A stretch of DNA of 51,821 nucleotides from Shigella phage pSf-1. The translations under genes and the position numbers were made by a program. The notes beneath the pieces are model-generated. The model saw only the letters and a program-made list of their open reading frames with translations, searched no databases and was not told the DNA's origin. The number at the start of each line of letters is the position of its first letter. Position 1 is the first letter of the stretch. Shown here piece after piece: positions 2,859 through 39,702 of this stretch. The stretch lies in the sequence record KC710998. The stretch is one strand, 5' to 3'.

Positions 2859-4541
2859 ATGATTCCAAACATTGAAAAGCAAATATCAGCACTTGGTGAA
2901 GCGGTAATTAAATCCATTCAGGAGCGATTCACTGTTGGCGATATTGTGCCTTACCCTTACCAGTGCGTTGCATACGCTGAGATCGCAAAGCGTATGAAAA
3001 ATTATGAGCATCCATTCTTTGTTAAAGCGTCCGTATCGGCTGGCAAAACATTGGTGTTTGCAATGGTTGCTCACCAGTGCCGGAAAATGGGCTTGAAAAT
3101 GATGGTCCTTGCTCGCCAGGCTGAGATTGTGGGTCAGGATTCTGAAGAGATAACAAATCTTGGTGTGCCGAACTCCATCTATTGTGCAGGACTGAAGACA
3201 AAAAGCGCATACTTTCCGATCGTTGTTGGTTCTGAGGGAACTGTAGTTAATGGACTGTTTAAAGCGCTTGGCGACTATGTTCCGCACGTTATCGGGATTG
3301 ACGAGTGTCACCAGGTGGATTGGGAAGACCTTGCCGACGCAATAGACAAAGACGAATCATTTTTGCAAATGACGACGAAGAAAGGCGAAAAAGTACCAAA
3401 TCCAGATTATGACATAACAAAGGGAAGCAGGAACAGAAATACAGAGTTCCTGATTGGTGAAGATGGCTTGCCAATGGAGGGAACAGGCCGCACACAATAC
3501 ACTGTCATTATCATGGAAATGATGCGACGTTGCAGGAAAGCATATGGCCATGAACTGCGCATATTTGGCATGACTGGATCGGAGTTTCGCGGCGTAGTCC
3601 CGATCCTGGTAGAAGACAAAAAACAAAAAGGATTCTGGCGTGAACAGGTTACTAATATTGACACCAACTACCTGATCAAATTCGGTTCTGTTGTGCCAAC
3701 AAATTTTGGCGACGTTGGCGATCTAGGGTATGACCTTTCAGAGTTTGAGGCATCCAGCGAGGATGGCGTTGCAGACTTTGACGCTAAAACGCTTCGTAGG
3801 ATGGAACAAAAAATTCATGAAGAAGCGACCATGACAAAGCGCATCATGGCAAAAGTTCACGAGATCTGTAAAAACCGCAACGGCGTACTTGTGACATGTG
3901 CAGGAGAAAGGCATTGCAAAGAGGCAGCGGCAGCGTTGCCACCTGGAACTACTTACAGGATCATTACTGGTAAGACTGGCGACAATCAGCGCAAGGAGTG
4001 GTTGAGGGAAGCATACGAAGGGAAGGTAAAATACATCTTCCAGGTTCAGGCGCTAACAACTGGCGTTAACGTTCCGTTTTGGGATACGTCGGTTATATTG
4101 CGTAAGATTGGATCTCTTACGTTGCTGATTCAGCTTTTAGGGCGCGGAATGCGACTACTTAAGAAGTGGCATAAGGAGCAAGGATTCCAGAAAGATGATC
4201 ATCTCGTCATGGATTTTTCAGGAACGATGGACGAGTTAGGGGAACTTTATTTTGATCCGATACTGGAACAGGCGCAACATCAGAAGCGATTCAGGAACGG
4301 TAAAGATCCGAAGCCTTGTCCTGTTTGCGGAACTCTTAATAGCTATTATGCTCGTCGTTGTATGCACGTAGACGAAAACGGCAACAGATGCGAGTGGTTC
4401 TTTAAATTCAGGACATGCGATGATCAGATTGACCCGCGCACTAAAAAGATTATTCATCGCGGTTGTGGAACGAAAAATGATATTGCGGCCAGGGTGTGCA
4501 GACATTGCGACATGTCATTGATTGACCTAACGAGAAGTTGA
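2859..4541 (+). CDS. SF2 (DEAD/DEAH-type) DNA helicase with C-terminal zinc ribbons
   Basis: Walker A VSAGKT, GIDECHQ (DExH box), C-terminal CPVCG...CRHC; start chosen at ATG 2859 downstream of promoter cassette (track ORF starts 2793). Confidence 0.7.
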   Translation: MIPNIEKQISALGEAVIKSIQERFTVGDIVPYPYQCVAYAEIAKRMKNYEHPFFVKASVSAGKTLVFAMVAHQCRKMGLKMMVLARQAEIVGQDSEEITNLGVPNSIYCAGLKTKSAYFPIVVGSEGTVVNGLFKALGDYVPHVIGIDECHQVDWEDLADAIDKDESFLQMTTKKGEKVPNPDYDITKGSRNRNTEFLIGEDGLPMEGTGRTQYTVIIMEMMRRCRKAYGHELRIFGMTGSEFRGVVPILVEDKKQKGFWREQVTNIDTNYLIKFGSVVPTNFGDVGDLGYDLSEFEASSEDGVADFDAKTLRRMEQKIHEEATMTKRIMAKVHEICKNRNGVLVTCAGERHCKEAAAALPPGTTYRIITGKTGDNQRKEWLREAYEGKVKYIFQVQALTTGVNVPFWDTSVILRKIGSLTLLIQLLGRGMRLLKKWHKEQGFQKDDHLVMDFSGTMDELGELYFDPILEQAQHQKRFRNGKDPKPCPVCGTLNSYYARRCMHVDENGNRCEWFFKFRTCDDQIDPRTKKIIHRGCGTKNDIAARVCRHCDMSLIDLTRS

Positions 4542-9543: not shown

Positions 9544-9588
9544 CAAATATACCGATACGAGATCGGGAGTTTTAACAAAAAGTGCTAT
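9544..9588 (-). promoter_or_regulatory. conserved promoter cassette (minus strand)
   Basis: reverse-complement motif GTTTTAACAAAAAGTGCTAT, 17 nt spacer with CCGAT/ATCGG inverted repeat, TATATT, CATCGAAACGAA leader. Confidence 0.55.
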
Positions 9589-9705
9589 TCAATACGCTTT
9601 ACAGTAACCAACAAAACGCCGTCCTCATCACACAAATTATGCTCTGATATATCAAACGCTCGCATGTCAGAATGAATGAGCGTTAACATTGCGTGCATGA
9701 AGTCG

Positions 9706-10113
9706 TCATGTGAGATTGAACTTACGGCGCAGAACTTCAATATTTTGTCTATTAGCATTTGACGTAAACAATTCTTCATCGCTCATTTCTCCGATCCTTA
9801 AAACATCCCTTACCCATTCGTTTTGCATACCTTCCAGACTGTAAAGTTCAAACGAGAAAGGTCGATTTGCAGACCCTTTCTTACACCAGAACTTTCCACC
9901 AACTCCATCAAGATAACCAGCGGTCATCATTCTTGCGCAAAACTCTTTTGAAACGGCGGTTGCAAACATTCTCGGCGTAAATCCTGCGGCCCTTGCGAGC
10001 CGCTCACATTCTCTATGCTGAAATATAAATTTTGCGATATGTTGACGTGTAAACCATTCGAATGACTCACACCAGCGATACAGATCCAAGATAAACAAAA
10101 TGTTACCTCCCAT
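9706..10113 (-). CDS. hypothetical protein
   Basis: ORF track; downstream of HNH gene in same operon. Confidence 0.35.
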   Translation of the reverse strand: MGGNILFILDLYRWCESFEWFTRQHIAKFIFQHRECERLARAAGFTPRMFATAVSKEFCARMMTAGYLDGVGGKFWCKKGSANRPFSFELYSLEGMQNEWVRDVLRIGEMSDEELFTSNANRQNIEVLRRKFNLT

Positions 10114-10615
10114 GATTGCAGTGATATTTTAGTTCGTTTTCTTTTGATCTTCTTGCGCAAGCCGCATCAAATATAGTTTTAAAATATCCAATACAAAATG
10201 TTTTTCCTAAAACTCCTATTTGTGCATAATACAGTCCATCTTTAGTTATTGTAACCCCAGTTAATCCAGTTTTGTTTCTTTTGTTTTTTGATAAGTTTTT
10301 TTGATTATCTTTCTTTCTAACAAGTCTTAGATTTTCTATCCTGTTGTCGTCGCGAATGTGGTTAATGTGATCAATCTCATATCCTTCTAGTATAGCGCCG
10401 TTATGCATTTCCCATATTATCCGATGCGCCAAAAATCTCCTTTTATTTATGTTTAATAATATATAACCAGATTCTAAATCCTTACATCCTGCAATCTTAC
10501 CAGAATATTGAGTGTTACATTTGCTCATTATTCTTTCGCATGAGAAGTGGCTTAATGGCCTGGTGCGCCATATAAGCGCACCATTTGAATATGTAAAATA
10601 ATCATGCCAATTCAT
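10103..10615 (-). CDS. HNH homing endonuclease with AP2-like DNA-binding domain
   Basis: HNH motif EIDHINHIRDDNRIENLRLV...N; AP2-like segment GVTITKDGLYYAQIGVLGKTFCIGYF; GGGGTAA RBS. Confidence 0.65.
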   Translation of the reverse strand: MNWHDYFTYSNGALIWRTRPLSHFSCERIMSKCNTQYSGKIAGCKDLESGYILLNINKRRFLAHRIIWEMHNGAILEGYEIDHINHIRDDNRIENLRLVRKKDNQKNLSKNKRNKTGLTGVTITKDGLYYAQIGVLGKTFCIGYFKTIFDAACARRSKENELKYHCNHGR

Positions 10616-10619
10616 AAAA

Positions 10620-12203
10620 TTACCCCAGCAATGTTGGATTTACGAAAACAACGCCATTAATCACGCAAATATAGTTTCTTTCCTCAAGCATCGGAAGCAG
10701 TTGCGTTTCCATTCGCTTCATTACTCCAGCCTGACCAACAAACGGCTTAACTTTTCGTGCTGCCTCATATATAGCGCGAACATTCAATATCCCCTTATTA
10801 GCCTTGCCGTGTCGAGTAATGATCTCGATTAGTTTACCCATTTCAGCATCATCACCAGCGTAGCCAGAAGCGTTGGCGGCGCTAATGTATGTTTTGCTCA
10901 ACTCGCTAAACATCAGTAGTGCTTCCTGAACGGTTTCAACCTCAATCTCTTTCGACTTTTGAGGGTATCCGCCAGGGTTAAACCAATTGCGGATAGTGTG
11001 CAAAACCGAAGCAATCCTGATCACCTGCTTATCCATTTTTCCAAGCGCACCGCGCAGCATTGTATGCGAATACTTTCCGCCATCGGCAAGGTGCGGTTCC
11101 ATTTCCTGACGAGCCATGTTAAGAACTCGCATTGCTGATTTGCTGATCTTAAGCTGGATGTTTGATTCACTCATGATGTTATGGATCAGCTTAAAATATT
11201 GACTTTTCAGTTCTCCATCAACAGGCTCATAAGTCGAATCACCGTTATCATCAACAAACTTTCGACGACCTAAAAATGATTCCTCACGCACAAGCAAATA
11301 ACGCTCACTTACACCGATACCGCGCGATCCTGCATCCATGATGGCATTGATTGTTTCATCCTGGGCAATTACCGCCATACAGCCAAGAGCTTTAAAACTC
11401 ATATTGTTGTCAGCGTTTGCACGAGCTATAGAAACATGACCGTGATCCCATGCTTTTAATACAAGTTCGCTGTTGGTTTTACGTTCACTATTGGCATATG
11501 TCAGACCTAAAAGGCTGTTAATACTCGTTGCCTCGTCTGAAATTACAGCAAAGTTACCCTGGCGATTATTGATTCTTGCAAGTCCTTCCGGCGTGGTGTC
11601 GGACACAGGGAAAACTATGTCACACATCTTTTCCAGTTTTTCTTCCAGATCTTCTTTCTCCTGGTACAGAGATTCCATATCAGCGCCGGAGCGCTCGCTT
11701 TTCATCTCTTTTGCAAGACCTGCCAACTTTGCCTGAATCTTTTTTCTTTCCTTCTTTCGCTGATCGTTAATTCTTTCCACTTCTGCAACCATTGGAGCAA
11801 GTGCCAAGCTGTTAACGGCAGATTTACCAGTTGATGGAGGCTGGCTTGTAACAACGTACAGAGCGGTTGGTTGATCCGTTCCGTGATACTCAACAGTGAA
11901 GCGTCCAAGCATTGCAGCAGACACGCATCCGATAAAATGCATATATGCCGATGATTCAGGGAACTGAACTGATCGAGCAATGTTGCGCGCCAACTTGCCA
12001 ACAATATCAACATCATTGCCAAGAGAAATTACAGGGTAGCGATCGTTTCCGTTATTAACATCATTAACCTCACCCCAAAAGCTGGACGATTGACGGTATC
12101 CGTTTGCCTGAATGGACACGCGCACCGGAGACAATCCTTGTGCATCAGCTAATTCGATAATTTGTTTTGGTGTTAGTTTGTTGGTTTCAAACGAAAAATT
12201 CAT
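10620..12203 (-). CDS. DUF3987-like P-loop ATPase (putative replicative primase-helicase-associated protein)
   Basis: Walker A-like PPSTGKS, Walker B-like AVISDEAT; start at MNFSFETNK (ATG 12203, AAAGGAG RBS) downstream of promoter cassette. Confidence 0.5.
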   Translation of the reverse strand: MNFSFETNKLTPKQIIELADAQGLSPVRVSIQANGYRQSSSFWGEVNDVNNGNDRYPVISLGNDVDIVGKLARNIARSVQFPESSAYMHFIGCVSAAMLGRFTVEYHGTDQPTALYVVTSQPPSTGKSAVNSLALAPMVAEVERINDQRKKERKKIQAKLAGLAKEMKSERSGADMESLYQEKEDLEEKLEKMCDIVFPVSDTTPEGLARINNRQGNFAVISDEATSINSLLGLTYANSERKTNSELVLKAWDHGHVSIARANADNNMSFKALGCMAVIAQDETINAIMDAGSRGIGVSERYLLVREESFLGRRKFVDDNGDSTYEPVDGELKSQYFKLIHNIMSESNIQLKISKSAMRVLNMARQEMEPHLADGGKYSHTMLRGALGKMDKQVIRIASVLHTIRNWFNPGGYPQKSKEIEVETVQEALLMFSELSKTYISAANASGYAGDDAEMGKLIEIITRHGKANKGILNVRAIYEAARKVKPFVGQAGVMKRMETQLLPMLEERNYICVINGVVFVNPTLLG

Positions 12204-12274: not shown

Positions 12275-12487
12275 TTGATCCGCTCTATGCTAACTAAGAT
12301 TTTTTCTGGTTCCTTTGCACTATGGCAATGCGCGGTTACAGAATCAACAAAATCAAAGTAAAGTGATTTGTGATATGAGAATCCAATCAGCCACCCAACC
12401 ATCGTTTTCTTTATTGGCCTGACTATATCGCATGATTGAAGGTTTTTGTTGCTGAATGAGTCACCTTATAGCGATATTCAGCCTTGA

Positions 12488-12874
12488 TCACTTATACATA
12501 GCCTCAAACAAATGACAGCCACCAGCGGAAAATCCAACTTCTTCGCGGTACAGCGTCCAGCGGTCGCCAGCTTCATCAAACACATAACCAGCAACAGCGC
12601 CAAGTGCTCGGCCTTGCTCAATCTGGTAGCGCTTTCCTTCTTTGAAATGCTTTTTACAAGGGATCTTGTGATCTACAAAGGTGCATTTAATTGTTTTTGT
12701 CTTGATATGACGATAGTCAGACTCAACAGCGTTTTGCCACTTGCTACCCTTTGTAATGCTCTTTACCTGGAATTGTTCCAACTCGATCACATCATCGCTA
12801 CCAGCGATTTTTTCGTATACAACTTTATAACGACCGTTCATCAAAACGTTGGTTTTATTGCAGATAACTTTCAT
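12488..12874 (-). CDS. hypothetical protein
   Basis: ORF track; AAGGAG RBS; downstream of promoter cassette. Confidence 0.45.
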   Translation of the reverse strand: MKVICNKTNVLMNGRYKVVYEKIAGSDDVIELEQFQVKSITKGSKWQNAVESDYRHIKTKTIKCTFVDHKIPCKKHFKEGKRYQIEQGRALGAVAGYVFDEAGDRWTLYREEVGFSAGGCHLFEAMYK

Positions 12875-12904
12875 CGTTTATTTCTCCTTTCGTTTCGGTG
12901 AAGT

Positions 12905-12949
12905 GATTATGCCAGGTTTTGCACCTGGCGTTTTAACAAAAAGTGCTAT
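12905..12949 (-). promoter_or_regulatory. conserved promoter cassette (minus strand)
   Basis: 44-nt core identical to the plus-strand cassette at 17701..17744 (includes hairpin GCCAGGTGCAAAACCTGGC). Confidence 0.55.
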
Positions 12950-13655
12950 TTTGCGTTTGCTTCAAAGACGGCGCGAGCAAAACCGCGCGGTGTGAGGGAG
13001 CGGATCATCTTTGTGCGAGATGATTTTCCGCCAGTTTTGGCCCAACCAGGATTATCCTTGTCATCCTCTTTAGGAAGGATTGTTGCGCGCGGAGGAATAA
13101 CAAATCCGTTTCCAGTCCAAAGGCATGTTTTCTTAAAGTACCGATCCCGCGCCGGAATAATATCAGGGAAGTCGGGATGCTTATCATCTTCCGGCAGATA
13201 GCAGCATAATCGCACGGATGGAACGTATAATCAGGCTTACGCCATAACGTTGACAGCTTGCCTACAGGATTTTCGATCATGTAAGGAACGCCGAAATAAT
13301 CAGCGATATGCGCCGCGATTCTGCAAGTGTCGGCGGCCTCATCCTGGAACGCTGGATTCTCAAGGCGTTTTTTGGTCCAATGGCGAGATCCGCTATTTGC
13401 AAGGTCAGTGCACGGCGGAAATGCCATAATGAAATCAGGCTTGCCCCAATTTTCAAGTTTTGCGGTATATTTGAATAGCTCATCAATCCACACATTAACG
13501 TAAAAAATATTATCATGGATTATGCGCACTGATTGGTAGTCGCCATGATCTGCATCATCGTAATTAAAGCAAATGCATTTATATCCAGCATCAGCCCAAT
13601 CTTTAACGGCTTTACCAGATCCATCAAACAAAGAGAATATTAAACCTTTATACAT
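12946..13655 (-). CDS. C5-cytosine DNA methyltransferase-like protein, apparently frameshifted
   Basis: motif I LFDGSG, motif IV FPPCTDLANSG (PC dipeptide), motif VI ENPVG; coding continues in another frame (track ORFs 13005..13655 and 12946..13215). Confidence 0.45.
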
Positions 13656-13888
13656 TTCATCACCTCAAAACGGAAAGCATCTGGGCAGTTCGGATCAAAA
13701 TTGCAACCACAATCATTAACAATCATAGTTGGATCTGCAAATGCAGCGCCGCATTCATGGTCCATATCCATTTCACCCAACGCATCATCAAGCGTCCTGA
13801 TTTTATATGCGACTTCAAGCGCGGCCTCTTTATTCAGTCCGGCATCTTCTGCTTTTTGCAGTCGCTCAAAAAAACCGTCTTGACTCAT
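13640..13888 (-). CDS. hypothetical Cys-rich protein
   Basis: ORF track; Cys-containing CGCNFDPNCPD segment; overlaps start of methyltransferase-like gene. Confidence 0.4.
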   Translation of the reverse strand: MSQDGFFERLQKAEDAGLNKEAALEVAYKIRTLDDALGEMDMDHECGAAFADPTMIVNDCGCNFDPNCPDAFRFEVMKCIKV

Positions 13889-13998
13889 TTAATAAACTCC
13901 TTAACAACAGCAAGAATAATCACAAGCCCAGCAGTAAAAACAAGCAAACCGACAAGGCCAATCATAACACTAAATAAAACATCAAGCGTCTTAATCAT
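13885..13998 (-). CDS. small hydrophobic peptide (about 37 aa)
   Basis: ATG..TGA minus-strand ORF MIKTLDVLFSVMIGLVGLLVFTAGLVIILAVVKEFIK, single predicted TM helix; stop overlaps next start (ATGA). Confidence 0.3.
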   Translation of the reverse strand: MIKTLDVLFSVMIGLVGLLVFTAGLVIILAVVKEFIK

Positions 13999-14010
13999 TT
14001 ATTCACCATT

Positions 14011-14036
14011 GATAAAATGGGAGGCGGAAACCTCCC
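14011..14036 (-). terminator. putative terminator (minus strand)
   Basis: perfect GGGAGG/CCTCCC hairpin followed on minus strand by ATTTTATC. Confidence 0.4.
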
Positions 14037-14045
14037 ATTGGTTAA

Positions 14046-14273
14046 TCATACAGCCTTCCAGCTTTCAATAAACATGCTGTTTTCTTCCAGCAGTTTAATC
14101 AATTCTTCGCGCGTGTATTTGCGGATTTTACTACCTGGATGTGAGCCAACAACAAACACACCTTTACCACTCGTGATTGTTAACTGGTTGATTCCGCAAG
14201 ATTTATCCATCTTAATTGCGACGCGGTGATGTGCATCAACAGTGTTCATGATGTTAGTAACTTTAGCTTTCAT
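14046..14273 (-). CDS. hypothetical protein
   Basis: start at MKAKVTNIM with GAGGAT RBS; track ORF 14046..14336. Confidence 0.45.
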   Translation of the reverse strand: MKAKVTNIMNTVDAHHRVAIKMDKSCGINQLTITSGKGVFVVGSHPGSKIRKYTREELIKLLEENSMFIESWKAV

Positions 14274-14303
14274 TATGCAATCCTCATTATATTTGGTGTG
14301 ATA

Positions 14304-14346
14304 ACTATACCAGGTTTGAGAAATATTGTTTAGCAATTCGTGCTAT
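14304..14346 (-). promoter_or_regulatory. conserved promoter cassette (minus strand, variant ATAGCACGAATTGCTAAAC + TATAGT)
   Basis: same variant upstream half as cassettes at 19381 and 21896. Confidence 0.5.
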
Positions 14347-14447
14347 CAGTTGAAATAGCTATGGCGCTTTGCTCGCTTGCCTTCTCCGCCATAATGATCA
14401 TTTGCAACAGCTACCATCCAGGAATTATGGAATATTATTAGCTTCAT

Positions 14448-14729
14448 CTAATTAATGCCAACAACGTTAAAACTTACAGCTTTTGTTGCGCTAAATACAT
14501 ACGCTTCAACAGCATCACCAAATACACGAATTTTTCCATAGCCGTACTGCGCATTCATATTGCGCCAAACCGTCCTGTTAGAACAGAACGCGTTACCAGT
14601 CTTGATAAGATTATCCATCTCTTTTCTTAGGTCATGATAATCAAGCCAGAATCTATAGGCGCGTTGTTTAATGAGTTTCGCCTTGATTGCTTCGGCTGAG
14701 TTTTTAAAATCGCTGTTTTTGTATGCCAT
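14448..14729 (-). CDS. hypothetical protein
   Basis: ORF track; start overlaps stop of upstream gene (translational coupling). Confidence 0.45.
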   Translation of the reverse strand: MAYKNSDFKNSAEAIKAKLIKQRAYRFWLDYHDLRKEMDNLIKTGNAFCSNRTVWRNMNAQYGYGKIRVFGDAVEAYVFSATKAVSFNVVGIN

Positions 14730-14923
14730 TACACAACCTCCATAATAGTATTGAATCCACGCAGTTTGAAAGAGTTTCCATGTTTAACAACGTTCCATGT
14801 CAGGCCGGAGTGATACGCAACCATATCCTCAAGATCAATTGTGATGATAGCGCCTTTCTTAAAGATTCCTTTCTCGTGAGTGGTGTCACGCTGTACAACT
14901 TTAACATCAACTTGATTTTCCAT
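14729..14923 (-). CDS. hypothetical protein
   Basis: ORF track; GGA RBS in conserved leader. Confidence 0.45.
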   Translation of the reverse strand: MENQVDVKVVQRDTTHEKGIFKKGAIITIDLEDMVAYHSGLTWNVVKHGNSFKLRGFNTIMEVV

Positions 14924-14954
14924 TTTTAAATCCTCGTTCGTTGTCGATGCGCTT

Positions 14955-14998
14955 AATATACCAATCAGAGGCGCATCGGTTTTAACAAAAAGTGCTAT
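14955..14998 (-). promoter_or_regulatory. conserved promoter cassette (minus strand)
   Basis: motif + spacer, TATATT enclosed by 8-bp inverted repeat CGATGCGC/GCGCATCG. Confidence 0.55.
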
Positions 14999-15285
14999 TC
15001 AACAACAGATCCAGTTAAAGAGATAAGTGCTCTTGTGATCTTGTGTCTGCGATACTGACGCGCAACAACCGGAAGATTTTCACCGCTTTGATGACCGAAG
15101 CAGATCGGCAACTCACCCTCAAGAGAGCGGAAGCCGCCAAATTCAAGATCCCGCACTGGATTTGAGCGCCACGCTTCAATAAATCCGCGTTCGTCACGCG
15201 TGATATAGCGGTATATGTTAGGGAGGGGCAATTGTATCCCCTCAAAATCCACGGTATCGGTATAGCTGTAAAACTTAGAACTCAT
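14995..15285 (-). CDS. hypothetical protein
   Basis: start at MSSKFYSY overlapping stop of upstream small gene; track ORF 14995..15402. Confidence 0.4.
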   Translation of the reverse strand: MSSKFYSYTDTVDFEGIQLPLPNIYRYITRDERGFIEAWRSNPVRDLEFGGFRSLEGELPICFGHQSGENLPVVARQYRRHKITRALISLTGSVVE

Positions 15286-15427
15286 AATCAACAACTCCAA
15301 ACTCGTTGACGATTTGCGCCTTATAGAAGCCGCCATTTTTCGCAAGGTTGTAGCATGCCGCCACAGTTTCAAATTCGCGCACTTCCGGCTGGCTGTTTTC
15401 ATGTTCCCAGGTAATCAGAGTAACCAT
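15275..15427 (-). CDS. hypothetical small protein (50 aa)
   Basis: ATG after conserved leader CATCGACAACGAAAGCGAGGA; MVTLITWEHENSQPEVREFETVAACYNLAKNGGFYKAQIVNEFGVVDYEF. Confidence 0.4.
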   Translation of the reverse strand: MVTLITWEHENSQPEVREFETVAACYNLAKNGGFYKAQIVNEFGVVDYEF

Positions 15428-15460
15428 TTTCAAATCCTCGCTTTCGTTGTCGATGTGTGT

Positions 15461-15504
15461 AATGTACAGGAATACGAGGATTGAGTTTTAACAAAAAGTG
15501 CTAT
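15461..15504 (-). promoter_or_regulatory. conserved promoter cassette (minus strand)
   Basis: motif + 18 nt + TACATT + CATCGACAACGA leader. Confidence 0.55.
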
Positions 15505-15771
15505 TTAGTCCAGGAGTTCGATTTCGCGCTCGCCAGTTAACGGATCTTTGATCCAGAATCCGAGCGCCTCACCGTAAATACCGCCATAGAATCCAAGCGC
15601 CGACAGATCCTCACCTTTAACAAATACCAGATCCCCGCTACGGCTTACGTGAGATACGTTAACGATAACCGGAAAGGTGCGATCCTTAAATGCAGGCCGC
15701 ATGGCGTAACACCCGTTATTGAGCAAACGTGCTTTGCGCTTAACTGGAATAGGTGCATTGATTCGCGCCAT
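15505..15771 (-). CDS. hypothetical protein
   Basis: track ORF 15505..15810, start moved to MARINAPIP. Confidence 0.4.
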   Translation of the reverse strand: MARINAPIPVKRKARLLNNGCYAMRPAFKDRTFPVIVNVSHVSRSGDLVFVKGEDLSALGFYGGIYGEALGFWIKDPLTGEREIELLD

Positions 15772-15784
15772 CTTTATTTCTCCT

Positions 15785-16030
15785 TCATTGTTGATCGTGT
15801 TTAACGGCAATCAGAACACCACAGGACTCGTTAATGAATTTTGCCATTCGCTTATCATCACCAGCAGGGATTAGCGCATTACACTCGCGTTTGCTACTGA
15901 ATACCGTCACTTTATGGAATGATGCGAACGGCATCGACGGGAACTCTACTGTTTGCGTCAAGATCCGCAATCCCATCTTTTTGGCCCTTACCTGGGCCTC
16001 AGCGAGTTCAAAATCCACTTCATTAATCAT
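15785..16030 (-). CDS. hypothetical protein
   Basis: ORF track. Confidence 0.4.
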   Translation of the reverse strand: MINEVDFELAEAQVRAKKMGLRILTQTVEFPSMPFASFHKVTVFSSKRECNALIPAGDDKRMAKFINESCGVLIAVKHDQQ

Positions 16031-16299
16031 TTCTTGATCTCCTCGGCAATAAACTTCAGGACTTTGCGCAAAAACACTTCATTATTGATGGTCGCTGGCA
16101 ATTCCTCTTTCACTTCTTGCGGCAGGTAAACGTTGCCATGCCAGGTTAAGCAATCGTAGTTGATACGATAAGAGCAAAGCCACTCGCAATCGTTATCCGC
16201 TTCCCAAATGCAGAGTTGCAGAACATCGCCAAAATTCTCAACAGTCAGGTCCAGACCGTGACGCTTTGCAAAGTTGAAAGTGGTTTTGCTGATGTTCAT
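16027..16299 (-). CDS. hypothetical protein
   Basis: start MNISKTTF after conserved leader; track ORF 16027..16371. Confidence 0.45.
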   Translation of the reverse strand: MNISKTTFNFAKRHGLDLTVENFGDVLQLCIWEADNDCEWLCSYRINYDCLTWHGNVYLPQEVKEELPATINNEVFLRKVLKFIAEEIKK

Positions 16300-16337
16300 T
16301 TGCTTTCTCCTGATGGGTATCTCGTTTCGATGCGTGT

Positions 16338-16381
16338 AATGTACCCGATCAGGATGATTCAGTTTTAACAAAAAGTGCTAT
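16338..16381 (-). promoter_or_regulatory. conserved promoter cassette (minus strand)
   Basis: motif + 18 nt + TACATT + CATCGAAACGAG leader. Confidence 0.55.
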
Positions 16382-16974
16382 TTCTCAACTGGCGATTATT
16401 CCAACTATTCCATTAATCAGGAATAACAAGAATAACTCATTCGCGATCACCTGGATTGTGAGACTTTGAGTTTGGTCAATTTTAATCAAGTGATTAACTT
16501 TTTGTGTGGAGGGGATAGAGAAACGCGGCCCTCTTGCGTCCTTTCCGGCAATCCTGGCGCGCGCAATTGTTATCTTCTGTTATCGCTGTTATGCGTGTTA
16601 TTCCGGCGTGGAATCGCATAACAAAAAATAACAAGAAAAATCCATATAACATACTAAAAAATAAGGATTATTTATTTATATGTATCTATAAATTATTATC
16701 TGTTATGTGTGTTATGTGGGCGTATTGATACCAGATGTATTTTGGTGATTGTATGTGGTTGTGTGTTGGCTTGTATGTATATATGGGGTGGGGCGTATCC
16801 GCGCATTTTTAGATAACACGCAAAAACAACATTGATTTATAAGGAAAAGAACATGAATTTTGTTTCGTTCTTGAAACACAACATTGAAAAACTGCCAATA
16901 ACAATTAAAAACAGTTGACACGCCAGGAATGGTAAATGATAATGCAGCCACTGAATCACGAGGGGGGATAAAGC
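16382..16974. repeat. noncoding AT-rich island with TGTTAT/ATAACA iterons and TG-rich repeats (candidate origin or regulatory hub)
   Basis: four direct TGTTAT copies at 9-10 bp phasing (16568-16601), three ATAACA copies (16618-16651), TGTTATG x2 (16701-16715), GTGATTGT/TGTATGT repeats; no ORF of 60 aa or more. Confidence 0.6.
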
Positions 16975-25053: not shown

Positions 25054-25574
25054 ATGGCTAAAAACGTTGAGCCAGCAGTAAAGGCTTGCAATTTTAAAAA
25101 ACTATATAATAAGCAATATGGCGATATAGCAAAAATGACAAAGGCGCACAAGTACACGCCGGAACAGGTATTTGATCTGGCTGTTCGTTACTTTACGTGG
25201 GCTGAGGAAAACCATATACAGGCTGCGGAAACGGCATCCTTTCAGGGTGACGTATACGAAAGCAAGATTCACAAGCCGCGCGTGTTCACCTTAAACGGAT
25301 TCCGATTATTCGCTGGCCTTTCTGCCTCCGTACTTGAAAAATGGCGACGCGAGCAGGATTTAGCGATGTTATGGACTTTATCGACGGCGTTGTTTACGAG
25401 CAAAAATTCCAGCTTGCCGCAAACAATATTGTTAACGCCGGATTCATTGGTAAGGAGATCGGCATTGAAAAGCCAGCCACCGTTACCATTGAGAATAACA
25501 CAAGCGCCAGCGTTGACGCTGTAACGGCGGAGGAAGTCAAAGAGGCGGTAATTGACATTCTGGAGAAGATATAA
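25054..25574 (+). CDS. terminase small subunit (apparent frameshift near 25357)
   Basis: N-terminal part ...KPRVFTLNGFRLFAGLSASVLEKWRREQ in one frame, C-terminal part GFSDVMDFIDGVVYEQKFQLAANNIVNAGFIGKEIGIEKP in another (track ORFs 24883..25524 and 25341..25574); AAGGAGGG RBS. Confidence 0.55.
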
Positions 25575-27210: not shown

Positions 27211-28490
27211 ATGAGTAAATCACGAATCGTTAAGGCTGATGGCTATAACGAGATCTTTAAAGGCGAGAATTGCAAATCGCGAGTAGAGCAACCATTCTAC
27301 ATGCAATCAATGCCATACAAGACACTTGCTGACTTTTACGAAAAAGACGGCCTGGCAAAAAGGGTTATTGACGTAGTACCAGAGGAAATGGTTTCCCCTG
27401 GCTTCACGGTTGACGGCGTGGCAGACGAGGCAGCATTCCGTTCTTTGTGGGATGAGAAGCGATTGAATGCAAAAATTATTGATGCGCTTTGCTGGTCGCG
27501 TTTGTTTGGTGGATCTGCAATCATTGCTCTTGTTCAGGATGGGCGAGCGCTCAAATCACCTGTAAAGCCTGGTGCCATGTTGGAGGATGTGCGAGTTTAC
27601 GATCGCTATCAGATTCGCGTTGAAGCGCGCGAAACTAATCCACGCAAGGTTCGCTATGGTGAGCCAGTGCTTTACACTGTAACGCCAGGCGGAGACTTGC
27701 CGGAATACCAGGTACACTACACGCGAGTTTGCATTATCGACGGTGAGCGGATACCTAACGCAAAGCGACGCAGCAATGATGGCTGGGGTGAGTCAGTTCT
27801 TAACAAGCGACTTGTTGAGGCTATTGTTGATTATAACTATTGTGAAACATTGGCAACGCAATTATTGCGGCGGAAGCAACAGGCGGTATGGAAGGCTAAA
27901 GGACTCGCTGACTTGTGCGATGATGAAGAAGGTGTTAGCGCGGCACGTCTGAGGCTTGCGCAGGTTGACGATGAGGCGGCGTAGGCAGGGCCATTGGTAT
28001 TGATGCTGAGGATGAGGAATATGATGTTCTTAACTCTGACATTAGCGGCGTTGATTCTTTTCTGGAAAAGAAAATGGATCGCATCGTTTCCCTTTCAGGT
28101 ATTCATGAAATCATCCTGAAAAATAAAAACGTTGGCGGAGTTAGCGCAAGCCAAAACACGGCGCTTGAAACATTCTATAAGCTGATTGAACGAAAACGCG
28201 TTGAGGATTACAAGCCTATTCTTGAATTTCTATTGCCGTTCATCATTAGTGAGCAGGAGTGGAGTATTGAGTTTTCACCTTTGAGCGTACCTAGCGATAA
28301 AGATCAGGCTGAAATTCTGAATAAGAATATCGACTCAATCAGCAAGGCTATTGATGGTCAGTTCCTTGATGTTGAAGAAGCGCGCGACACGTTGCGAGCA
28401 ATCGCCCCAAGCGTTAAACTAAAGGACACTAATAAAATCAAGCTGCCGGAGCCAACTGAGCCGGAGCCAGGCACGCAGGGGAATGAGTAA
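27211..28490 (+). CDS. portal protein (apparent frameshift near 27970-27985)
   Basis: two adjacent track ORFs (27211..27984, 28074..28490); second frame is open back to about 27975, so one indel joins them; position between TerL and head morphogenesis gene. Confidence 0.5.
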
Positions 28491-35853: not shown

Positions 35854-38526
35854 ATGTCAGAACAATACGCAGGCTTGACGCTTGGGGTTGACGTTTCTCA
35901 ACTCAACAATGCTGTAAAGTCTTTGCAGCAATTCAAGAAGGCAAACGACGACGCAAAGGGAAGCGTTGAGAGTTTTGTTGATTCAGAGGTTGTTGCAAGA
36001 CAAAGAGCCAAACAACTGGCTGAGGAATTGGCAAAGCAGAAGCAAGAATTTAAAGCAATTCAGTCGGCAATAGATCCGACAGCAAGCAAAATGGATAAGT
36101 TGCGCCAGGCGGCAACACAGCTTGATGCGCTTTGGAAAAAAGGAATTGTGCCGGATGATACATTCTTTGAGTTAGGATCAATTCTTGAGACGCAGCAAAA
36201 CAAACTGATCGCAACTAAAAAGGCGCTAACTGAAGAAGGCCGCGCGGCGCTTGAGGAAGCAAAAAACAAGGCAAGGGCAGAGGCTGAGGCAAGAAAGTTT
36301 ATTGCGGCATTGCAGGCGCAAGCTGACGCAGCGGAAAAAACAAAATCAGAGCTTGTCGAAATGAGAGCCGCACAACTTGGAGTTAGTGCAGAGGCAGCGC
36401 CATTTATTGCAAAAATGAAGGAGCAGGAAAAACAAGCCTCAAAACTTGGCGTTTCTATGGGGCAGTACAAGCAAGCAATGGCGCAATTGCCAATGCAGAT
36501 CACTGACGTTGTTACTTCTCTTGCTTCAGGTATGCCAGTATGGATGATCGCAATCCAGCAGGGTGGGCAAATCAAGGACTCATTCGGCGGTGTTGCTAAT
36601 ACGTTTAAAGCGCTAATGACATTTGTCACGCCTTTAAGTGTAGGAATGACGGCGCTGACTGGTGCTCTTGGTTATGCTGCATATAATGCATACAAAGCAA
36701 ATGCACAATTGAAGGAGATCACAAAAACCGTTCAGGAGGCAACAGGTCTTTCCGGTGAGTTTGCAGAGCGGATCGCAACTGGAATCCAAGCGCTATCTGA
36801 CAAGACAGGAGAGAGCGCCGACAATCTGGCAAAGGCATACATAAGCACTAAGGATGGAGCAACCGAGGCCATACAAAAACTCGTCGATGTTGGATTTACC
36901 TATGACGAAGCAAAGGCAAAAGTAAACGAATACAAAAACGCATCAAGTTTTGTAAGTCTTAACAATGAAATTGCTGATCACAAAAACAAGGTTCTTGAGC
37001 TTGGCGATTCATGGTATGCGGTCTTAAAAGCAAAACGTGATTATGCTTCACCGTCCGGCGGGCTGTTGGGGAAAGAGCTTGGTTATGTGAATCCAATGCT
37101 GCAATTTGCGAAGAACACCTATGAGGATATAGGAAAGATTGTAAAAGATGCGAATAAGGATATGGCGGAACGAGCAGCACGCATCGACAGAGAAAACCTT
37201 TCCTTAAACAGAGTTCGAGCGGCGCAAGAGGCTTTAAACAAAGCCATAGAGGATCAGAAGAACGTAGCAAGGACAGCAGACGAAGAGTTGAAAAAGCGCG
37301 CGGCTGAGAACGTGGAGTTCAGGCGAAAAGAGCTTGAAGAGGCGAAGAAGGCGCAGCAGCAAAAGGAAAAAGTTGGTGGAGTTGTAAAAGCACCAACAGA
37401 GCAGCTTGATAAGGAGCTATATGTTCTCAAGGCGCAACTTGAAACGCTGAAAGAGCACCGAACTGTAAATGATGTTATTTCACGCCAGAGGCAATCTTTG
37501 TGGAGCATTGAAAAGCAGATCCAGATCCTGGAGGAAGCGCAAAGCAAACGCAAGCTGACAAAGGCTGAACAGGCGTTACTAAACGAGCAAAAAGCAGTTA
37601 TTGCTATGGCAAAAGAAAAGGCCGAGATAGGCGATCAGATTGTTTTGCAACAAAGAAAGAACAAGCAATACCAGGAAGGGCTTAAATTCATTCAGCAAAC
37701 ATCAGATGCTATTGACGCTATGAACTTGCGACAGTCTGGAGCTACAGATCTGCAAATCCAGCGAGAGCTTGAGTTGAAGAAGTTGCGAACTGATTATGTT
37801 GCTGGCGGCGGTAGTATCGACGATGAAATTTATCAGCAGATGGAAGCAAAGCTGAAAGAGTATTACGCAACTGAGGATCAACTTAGAAATAACTGGATTG
37901 CAGGAGCAAAAAACGCATGGGAGGTTTACGGACAAGATGCAATGGATATGTACGGAAACGTGCAAGATATTGCAAGCGAGGCGCTCAACGGTCTAACCAA
38001 CCAAATGGCTACATTCCTTGCAACAGGCAAGGCAAACTTTAAGAGCTTCGCAACGTCAATCATCCAAATGATTATCCAGATGATCACGAAGATGGTTATC
38101 TTTAATGCCATATCTGGTGCGATTGGAGGTGACACTTGGACGATTGGAAGCCTTCTTAAAAATGTTGGATTTGCAACTGGTGGATACACTGGCGACGGCG
38201 GGAAGTATGAGCCAGCAGGTGTTGTTCATAAAGGCGAGTTTGTCATGACGAAGGAGGCCACGAAGCGGATCGGAGTTGGAAACCTTTACAAAATGATGCG
38301 CGGTTATGCAAATGGCGGCGTTGTTGGCGGCACTTCATACACTGGCGGCGGCGTTTCATCAGGAGCAACAAACCTTAATATTGGTGGGATTAGCGTTGAT
38401 ATTAACAACGGAAACGATCCGAAGGGGTTAGAGACTGGCGTAAAAATGATTTTCACTGATATGATTAAGCGTTCCTGTACGCAGGGTGGGGAAGTTTACG
38501 AATTTGTTATGTCTAAGCGGGGGTGA
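35854..38526 (+). CDS. tape measure protein
   Basis: 890 aa, Ala/Lys/Glu-rich predicted coiled coil, Gly-rich C-terminal region, position after G/T. Confidence 0.75.
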
Positions 38527-38940: not shown

Positions 38941-39702
38941 ATGGCTAATGAAACAACAGGTCGCGCGGATCTTGAAAATTGTCTGCAAAGCCTTTACCCT
39001 GGCGAGATTATCACGCTAATTGAGATTGACGGCACAAAGTTTGGCGCAAACATTTACCGCATACACAATGAGAACATCTCATACACTGCGGAAGAATTAT
39101 TGCAGGCGCGAGAAACTGGAGTTCTTCCGCCGAAAGAGATTACATTCCGTGGCGAGGTTTACGGCGCGCGCCCGTTTGGAATATCTGGAATCAACTTCAC
39201 AAGCAACGGAAAGGCTGATAAGCCACAATTGATACTATCAAACCTTGATAGCCAGGTGAGCGCGATGATTCGCAACTTTAACGGCATGATGCAAGCTAAG
39301 GTTACAATCTGGATCACGCCAGCGGAATTAATGGGGAAAGATGGCAGCATTAAAGATGGAGCCTCAAGAAAGCTGGTTTACTACATTGAGCGCCCAAGCC
39401 ATTACAATAGAATGATGGCGAAATTTGACCTGACATCGCCTTATGATATGGATGGAATAATGATTCCTCCGCGAATAACTCAAAGCGTTTGTTATTGGGC
39501 GCAGCGTGGATGGTATCGAAGCGGAAAAGGTTGCGGATACAATGGATCGCGAATGTTTGACAAAGACAACAATCCTGTAACAGATCCATCTCAAGACTTT
39601 TGCGCAGGAACTGTAACAGCGTGCAAACTTCGTTTTGGTGCAGATCAGCAGCTTGATTTTGGCGGTGCACCAGTAGCAAGCCTGTTAAGGAGAAATCAGT
39701 GA
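38941..39702 (+). CDS. minor tail protein (lambda L-like)
   Basis: start ATG 38941 with AGGAGGTG RBS (track ORF from 38908); position. Confidence 0.55.
   Translation: MANETTGRADLENCLQSLYPGEIITLIEIDGTKFGANIYRIHNENISYTAEELLQARETGVLPPKEITFRGEVYGARPFGISGINFTSNGKADKPQLILSNLDSQVSAMIRNFNGMMQAKVTIWITPAELMGKDGSIKDGASRKLVYYIERPSHYNRMMAKFDLTSPYDMDGIMIPPRITQSVCYWAQRGWYRSGKGCGYNGSRMFDKDNNPVTDPSQDFCAGTVTACKLRFGADQQLDFGGAPVASLLRRNQ

Follow-up and report, generated by a model that had tools for sequence, protein, structure and literature searches.

A Dcm-like C5-cytosine methyltransferase gene of Shigella phage pSf-1, most probably intact in the phage and interrupted by an error in its sequence record

Shigella phage pSf-1 very probably carries an intact, 711-nt gene for a Dcm-like C5-cytosine methyltransferase, and the frame break that divides this gene in the 2013 record KC710998 most probably arose through an error of sequencing or assembly. 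The window that was analysed is the whole stretch of 51,821 nucleotides of this record. Two open reading frames on its minus strand, 13655..13005 (216 aa) and 13215..12946 (89 aa), both listed in an earlier note made from the letters alone, do exist and are the halves of a single gene. The longer product, whose translation starts MYKGLIFSLFDGSG, is deposited under AGI61404.1/YP_008059743.1 with the label 'DNA methyltransferase', and an exact look-up in a collection of 15 billion proteins returned the 216-aa form from the pSf-1 record only. As deposited, this product ends in an aberrant tail, whereas the relatives in Hanrivervirus and the Drexlerviridae have an intact protein of 236 aa. The gene is already known and is characterised in a close relative, phage K42. 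The coordinates of the gene, its parts, its neighbours and the control lesions discussed below are collected in Table 1.

Table 1. Features of the methyltransferase locus and of other genes considered in the pSf-1 window
Feature	Position	Strand	Details
Whole Dcm-like C5-cytosine methyltransferase gene	12946..13655	-	710 nt in the pSf-1 record; 711 nt, 236 aa in relatives; phrog_757 4.4e-86
In-frame N-terminal part, codons 1-151/152	13200..13655	-	Motif I FDGSG, motif IV PPC (Cys82), motif VI ENP (Glu128); tblastn and invariant columns
Missing-base site	13202..13203	.	Alignments with relatives
Final, out-of-frame stretch of the annotated ORF (216 aa)	13005..13199	-	~65 codons with no relation to the family
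C-terminal part (codons 153-236 and stop), read in the other frame	12946..13200	-	K175/K176 and invariant GGKS.RTK.IRSLTPRG block; tblastn, query residues 153-236, 97.6%
Dam-family N6-adenine methyltransferase gene, intact, 233 aa	5384..6085	+	PF05869 1.7e-60, 204 bits vs cut-off 28.1
Cys-rich small gene (pSf1_0022)	13640..13888	-	phrog_9323; 74 aa in relatives, 82 aa in pSf-1
37-aa hydrophobic peptide gene	13885..13998	-	Conserved: Fulano1 gp57, KarlJaspers bas06_0057
Hairpin GCCAGG-N7-CCTGGC, intergenic, directly after the dcm stop	12911..12929	.	Stem consists of two CCWGG sites
Portal gene, private 1-nt deletion	27975..27984	+	ORF ends at 257/426 aa; control for record error
Small terminase (terS) gene, private 1-nt deletion GCCAGG to GCAGG	25338..25356	+	Frame shifted after residue ~100, C-terminus replaced
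DNA helicase gene, private 1-nt deletion	4514..4541	+	ORF ends at 560/681 aa

The lesion is a single base. In alignments with KarlJaspers, Fulano1 and EC147, one base is missing from the pSf-1 coding sequence at plus-strand position 13202/13203, at codon 152, where pSf-1 has a single C13202 and all compared relatives have CC; an indel had been anticipated near 13195-13205, and this is where it lies. On the coding strand, the relatives read GAT TAT GCT GGC TAT (D-Y-A-G-Y) and pSf-1 reads GAT TAT GCT GCT ATC, the lost base being one of G454/G455 in coding numbering. A tblastn search with Fulano1 gp55 places residues 1-152 in one frame of the window (98.0% identity) and residues 153-236 in another (97.6%), which bears out the claim that the C-terminal region continues in the overlapping frame. 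Adding one G yields a protein of 236 aa with ~98% identity to gp55 on either side of the break, and the C-terminal part with motifs IX-X and the DNA-binding region, which lies outside the continuous reading frame as deposited, becomes continuous with the rest.

The locus is widespread among related phages. A megablast search with positions 12900-13700 against 50,697 phage records returned 114 matching records, 92 of which span 80% or more of the query. The best matches, at 95.5-96.5% identity, are EC147, Fulano1, phiE31-2 and KarlJaspers (Hanrivervirus; Drexlerviridae, Tempevirinae), all of which carry one continuous 711-nt coding sequence for 236 aa; the orthologue of KarlJaspers (Bas06) is 95.5% identical in DNA over the 801-nt query. 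The relatives' genes are annotated as 'Dcm-like C5 cytosine methyltransferase', 'site-specific DNA methylase' or 'DNA methyltransferase'. The Drexlerviridae dcm genes, such as bas06_0055 and Fulano1 gp55, share 86-96% DNA identity and the family phrog_757 with pSf-1, as well as the gene order: helicase, small genes, dcm, the Cys-rich gene and the 37-aa gene. Of the 114 matches, each of which has 80% identity or more, twelve are records named 'Campylobacter phage' with C. jejuni as host, an odd host label for a Drexlerviridae-like sequence.

The deletion is private to pSf-1 in these comparisons. With a query of 111 nt that has the site at its centre, it is absent from all 60 records listed among the 89 matching phage records; each listed relative spans one nucleotide more than the query part it matches (112 nt where 111 nt matched, and 111 nt in two cases where 110 nt matched). 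When the frame is restored, the codon differences 3' of the break are almost all synonymous (synonymous to nonsynonymous 4:0 against KarlJaspers, 11:2 against Fulano1 and 10:0 against EC147), so that the downstream part has undergone no decay.

The methyltransferase gene is not the only one interrupted in this record. Comparison with Fulano1, EC147, KarlJaspers and phiE31-2 revealed about 12 one-nucleotide deletions private to the window, at positions 4526, 9272, 9554, 12917, 13203, 13686, 18240, 20719, 25355, 27977, 30978 and 46112, and in nearly all of them a short run of C, G or A is reduced by one base. At least eight lie in coding sequence and break the frame. When all Fulano1 coding sequences were searched against the window with tblastn, the proteins split across two frames were, besides the methyltransferase, terS, portal, helicase gp38, gp7, gp75 and gp26, with breaks at approximately 25353 (terS), 27977 (portal), 4526 (gp38), 30978 (gp7) and 20720 (gp75). 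[quoted passage not shown] 2013). Since pSf-1 forms plaques, the breaks in portal and terminase cannot be real, and the spread of the private deletions fits errors that selection never saw rather than evolved indels. A record error is favoured over a pseudogene for the methyltransferase because the portal, terS and helicase genes are interrupted by deletions of the same kind although the phage is viable. The frame disruption described in the earlier note thus stands as a property of the record and is not supported as one of the phage. The error pattern suggests under-calling of short runs or homopolymers as the probable source of the errors.

Two of the private deletions, 25355 and 30978, lie inside a CCWGG site (GCCAGG to GCAGG), and 12917 abuts a CCAGG. 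Two of twelve inside CCAGG corresponds to a binomial P of ~0.008, which may reflect a motif-linked sequencing bias or chance. Base-calling error at methylation motifs was set aside as the cause, as the events are too few and the dcm lesion itself lies in GCCAGC, which is not a CCWGG site.

That the deletion in dcm is nevertheless genuine, the other breaks being errors, is unlikely. In this case the gene would be a recently inactivated pseudogene, selected for instance by retron Ec86-type or another methylation-sensing defence of Shigella. The idea draws on phage K42 (KarlJaspers strain Hzau42, ~51.7 kb), whose genome was assembled from Illumina data and whose 711-bp dcm triggers retron Ec86/Eco1 (bioRxiv 10.1101/2023.08.16.553469). 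The K42 escapers of the retron, four out of four, disrupted dcm or the region upstream of it (bioRxiv 10.1101/2023.08.16.553469); in one, a single dG is deleted at coding position 451, within 3-4 nt of the pSf-1 lesion, and another, mut#1, lost dcm within a 2,262-bp deletion and shows that the gene is dispensable. The near-absence of nonsynonymous change 3' of the break would also fit a very recent event. Against this, the lesion is a one-base run contraction like ~11 others, at least three of which are impossible in a viable phage, and it occurs in none of the listed relatives. Error alone, at ~12 events per ~44 kb aligned, would place ~0.2 such deletions in a gene of 711 nt, and the neighbouring gene has a private deletion of its own at a distance of 483 nt. 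It is accordingly quite improbable that the Hanrivervirus type isolate, pSf-1, is dcm-null by nature and lost its methyltransferase under methylation-sensing (retron Ec86-like) selection in a Shigella host. A real deletion would represent a field case, at nearly the same nucleotide, of a retron escape that has so far been observed in laboratory escapers only. K42 and pSf-1 belong to the same genus-level phage group, and of the two only the pSf-1 copy is split, at codon 152. That the window might itself be the genome of the K42 escaper mut#4 was rejected, since the exact protein look-up assigns it to pSf-1 and the K42 assembly was made with Illumina data.

Expression of the gene in spite of the break, by ribosomal frameshifting or as an enzyme of two polypeptides, is highly improbable. 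M.AquI is a naturally split C5-methyltransferase, in which the division falls roughly where the catalytic core gives way to the C-terminal motifs. The pSf-1 locus resembles M.AquI alpha/beta in its two overlapping reading frames of different phase and in the place of its break, which separates the catalytic core (motifs I-VI) from the conserved C-terminal block, and the second reading frame has a GTG at 13215. This GTG is, however, its only start, and the 15 nt 5' of it hold no Shine-Dalgarno-like sequence; nor does GAT TAT GCT GCT ATC contain a slippery heptamer. Unlike that of M.AquI, the pSf-1 split is confined to a single record, the gene being a single continuous reading frame in all relatives, and the same type of lesion equally breaks essential genes whose products are single polypeptides. 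Frameshifting and a split enzyme were both rejected on these grounds.

The assignment of the repaired protein to the C5-cytosine methyltransferases, which the earlier note had made from motifs, is well supported, and the protein is a compact, divergent member of this superfamily. Its motif series is present in the 216-aa frame as described: LFDGSG at residues 9-14, FPPCTDLANSG at residues 79-89 and (I)ENPVG, of which ENPVG occupies residues 128-132. The family phrog_757 ('DNA methyltransferase') matches residues 2-235 of the repaired protein with an E-value of 4.4e-86 (289 bits), and 3281 homologues of ~227-240 aa were found, mostly on phage contigs of 40-52 kb. Among 26 homologues, G12/S13/G14 of motif I, P81/C82 of motif IV and E128/N129/P130 of motif VI are invariant, as is a C-terminal block formed by T215-K216 and I218-R-S-L-T-P-R-G225. 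Motif I has the SAM-binding FxGxG form (F10-D-G12-S13-G14), P81-C82 of motif IV falls on the PC dipeptide of DNMT3B and M.HaeIII in alignments, and motif VI is a variant with Pro in the third place instead of Val.

The fold, that of a class I methyltransferase, points in the same direction. An AlphaFold2 model of a homologue with 86% identity (pLDDT 84.4, pTM 0.85) was compared with the PDB by Foldseek and matched the catalytic domains of DNMT3B and DNMT3A with E-values of 2e-7 to 1e-5, probability 1.00 and TM-scores of 0.45-0.55. The top 37 matches all belong to the DNMT3 family, and match 38 is the DNA methyltransferase of prophage CP-933R (3g7u, 2.4e-5). With DNMT3A/DNMT3B and the PF00145 enzymes (M.HaeIII, E. 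coli Dcm), the pSf-1 protein shares the fold, FxGxG of motif I, PC of motif IV and ENx of motif VI. It differs from them in its low identity (12-17%), in being smaller by ~50-240 residues, in its minimal target-recognition region, and in having ENP and PPCT in place of the ENV and (G/S)PCQ of DNMT3 and bacterial C5-methyltransferases.

Another Rossmann-fold enzyme, with a different substrate or chemistry and only superficially similar motifs, is a highly improbable identity for this protein. It would account for the search against PF00145, the check that the earlier note had proposed, in which both the deposited reading frame and the repaired protein stay below the gathering threshold (10.9-11 bits vs 22, E 0.3); the family assignment rests on other evidence. 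Similarly, the repaired protein has no NCBIfam family, sequence and profile searches of the PDB gave only marginal matches to DNMT3B and M.HaeIII (E 0.15-1.1) that cover motifs I-IV alone, and a protein of only 236 aa has no large target-recognition domain. However, 9 of the 26 close homologues match PF00145 with E-values of 0.01 or less (best 1.3e-6), the catalytic PC and ENx are invariant, and the structural matches are led by the DNMT3 family. In addition, 5mC was found by LC-MS on the msDNA of Ec86 with wild-type K42 Dcm and not with its C82A/E128A/K175A/K176A mutant (bioRxiv 10.1101/2023.08.16.553469). K42 Dcm and the repaired pSf-1 protein, compared by length and numbering, have equal genes of 711 bp and identical positions for C82, E128, K175 and K176.

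The locus is the gene for the Dcm-like C5-cytosine methyltransferase that Hanrivervirus shares with other T1-like (Drexlerviridae) phages. Its product is predicted to be a minimal enzyme with a DNMT3-like fold, in which the FDGSG loop would bind SAM, Cys82 of PPC would be the catalytic residue together with Glu128 of ENP, and a short conserved C-terminal part with K175/K176 and GGKS.RTK.IRSLTPRG would contact DNA. Judging from the K42 orthologue, the enzyme probably produces 5-methylcytosine, apparently at CCWGG, and would in this way mimic host Dcm methylation on phage DNA. For K42, the specificity for CCWGG was deduced from the finding that triggering of the retron requires the CCTGG site in its msDNA; mutation of this site abolished Ec86 defence, and expression of K42 Dcm was toxic only when Ec86 was present (bioRxiv 10.1101/2023.08.16.553469). 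By the same analogy, retron Ec86 would sense the pSf-1 enzyme, whose action would methylate the Ec86 msDNA. Both the activity and the CCWGG specificity of the pSf-1 enzyme are in this sense probable properties carried over from its orthologue.

CCWGG is strongly over-represented in the window and is not avoided: it occurs 120 times, compared with 48.8+/-6.8 times in dinucleotide-preserving shuffles, none of which (0/100) reached 120. Drexlerviridae abundantly encode N6-adenine and C5-cytosine methyltransferases, which show no simple link to resistance to restriction (BASEL, PMC8594841). An anti-restriction role of the two pSf-1 methyltransferases is one that we can only infer, and for the orthologous enzyme the only consequence that has been demonstrated is the triggering of retron Ec86 (bioRxiv 10.1101/2023.08.16.553469).

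The second methyltransferase, the Dam-like enzyme that the earlier note had placed elsewhere in the genome, is encoded there by an intact gene, and its product (AGI61389.1) is 98.7% identical to Fulano1 gp40. The small Cys-rich reading frame and the 37-aa hydrophobic peptide, said to lie immediately upstream of the methyltransferase, likewise turned out to be real, conserved genes on the same strand. A scan of 12300-16800 for promoter and terminator consensus sequences gave counts no higher than in shuffles and was uninformative on an operon. Members of the Cys-rich phrog_9323 family have paired Cys motifs (HECG, DCGC, CPRC) and are always found just upstream of dcm; the protein has 74 aa in the other listed members of a cluster of 100. 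In the pSf-1 record, the second private 1-nt deletion, at 13685/13686, changes its C-terminus from ...CPRCFPF followed by the stop to ...CPDAFRFEVMKCIKV followed by the stop, and thereby destroys the last CxxC of the protein.

On the other side of the gene, the hairpin at 12911-12929 shows compensating -1/+1 indels in the window with respect to all four relatives. Genes for HNH homing endonucleases differ in number and position between the window (9583-10620) and Fulano1 (36000-37500, 39159-39659), and Fulano1 gp53, between the helicase and gp54, has no counterpart at that place in the window. These differences indicate mobile HNH insertions around the dcm neighbourhood.

The RefSeq record of pSf-1, the type phage of Hanrivervirus, therefore seems to need correction, the 216-aa methyltransferase and its 82-aa neighbour being apparently truncated and extended artefacts, respectively. 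The portal, terS and helicase genes are seemingly broken in the same manner, and comparative or machine-learning work that builds on this record inherits false pseudogenes. For any one phage, the presence or absence of an intact dcm predicts its sensitivity to retron Ec86, of which the orthologous enzyme is the known trigger.
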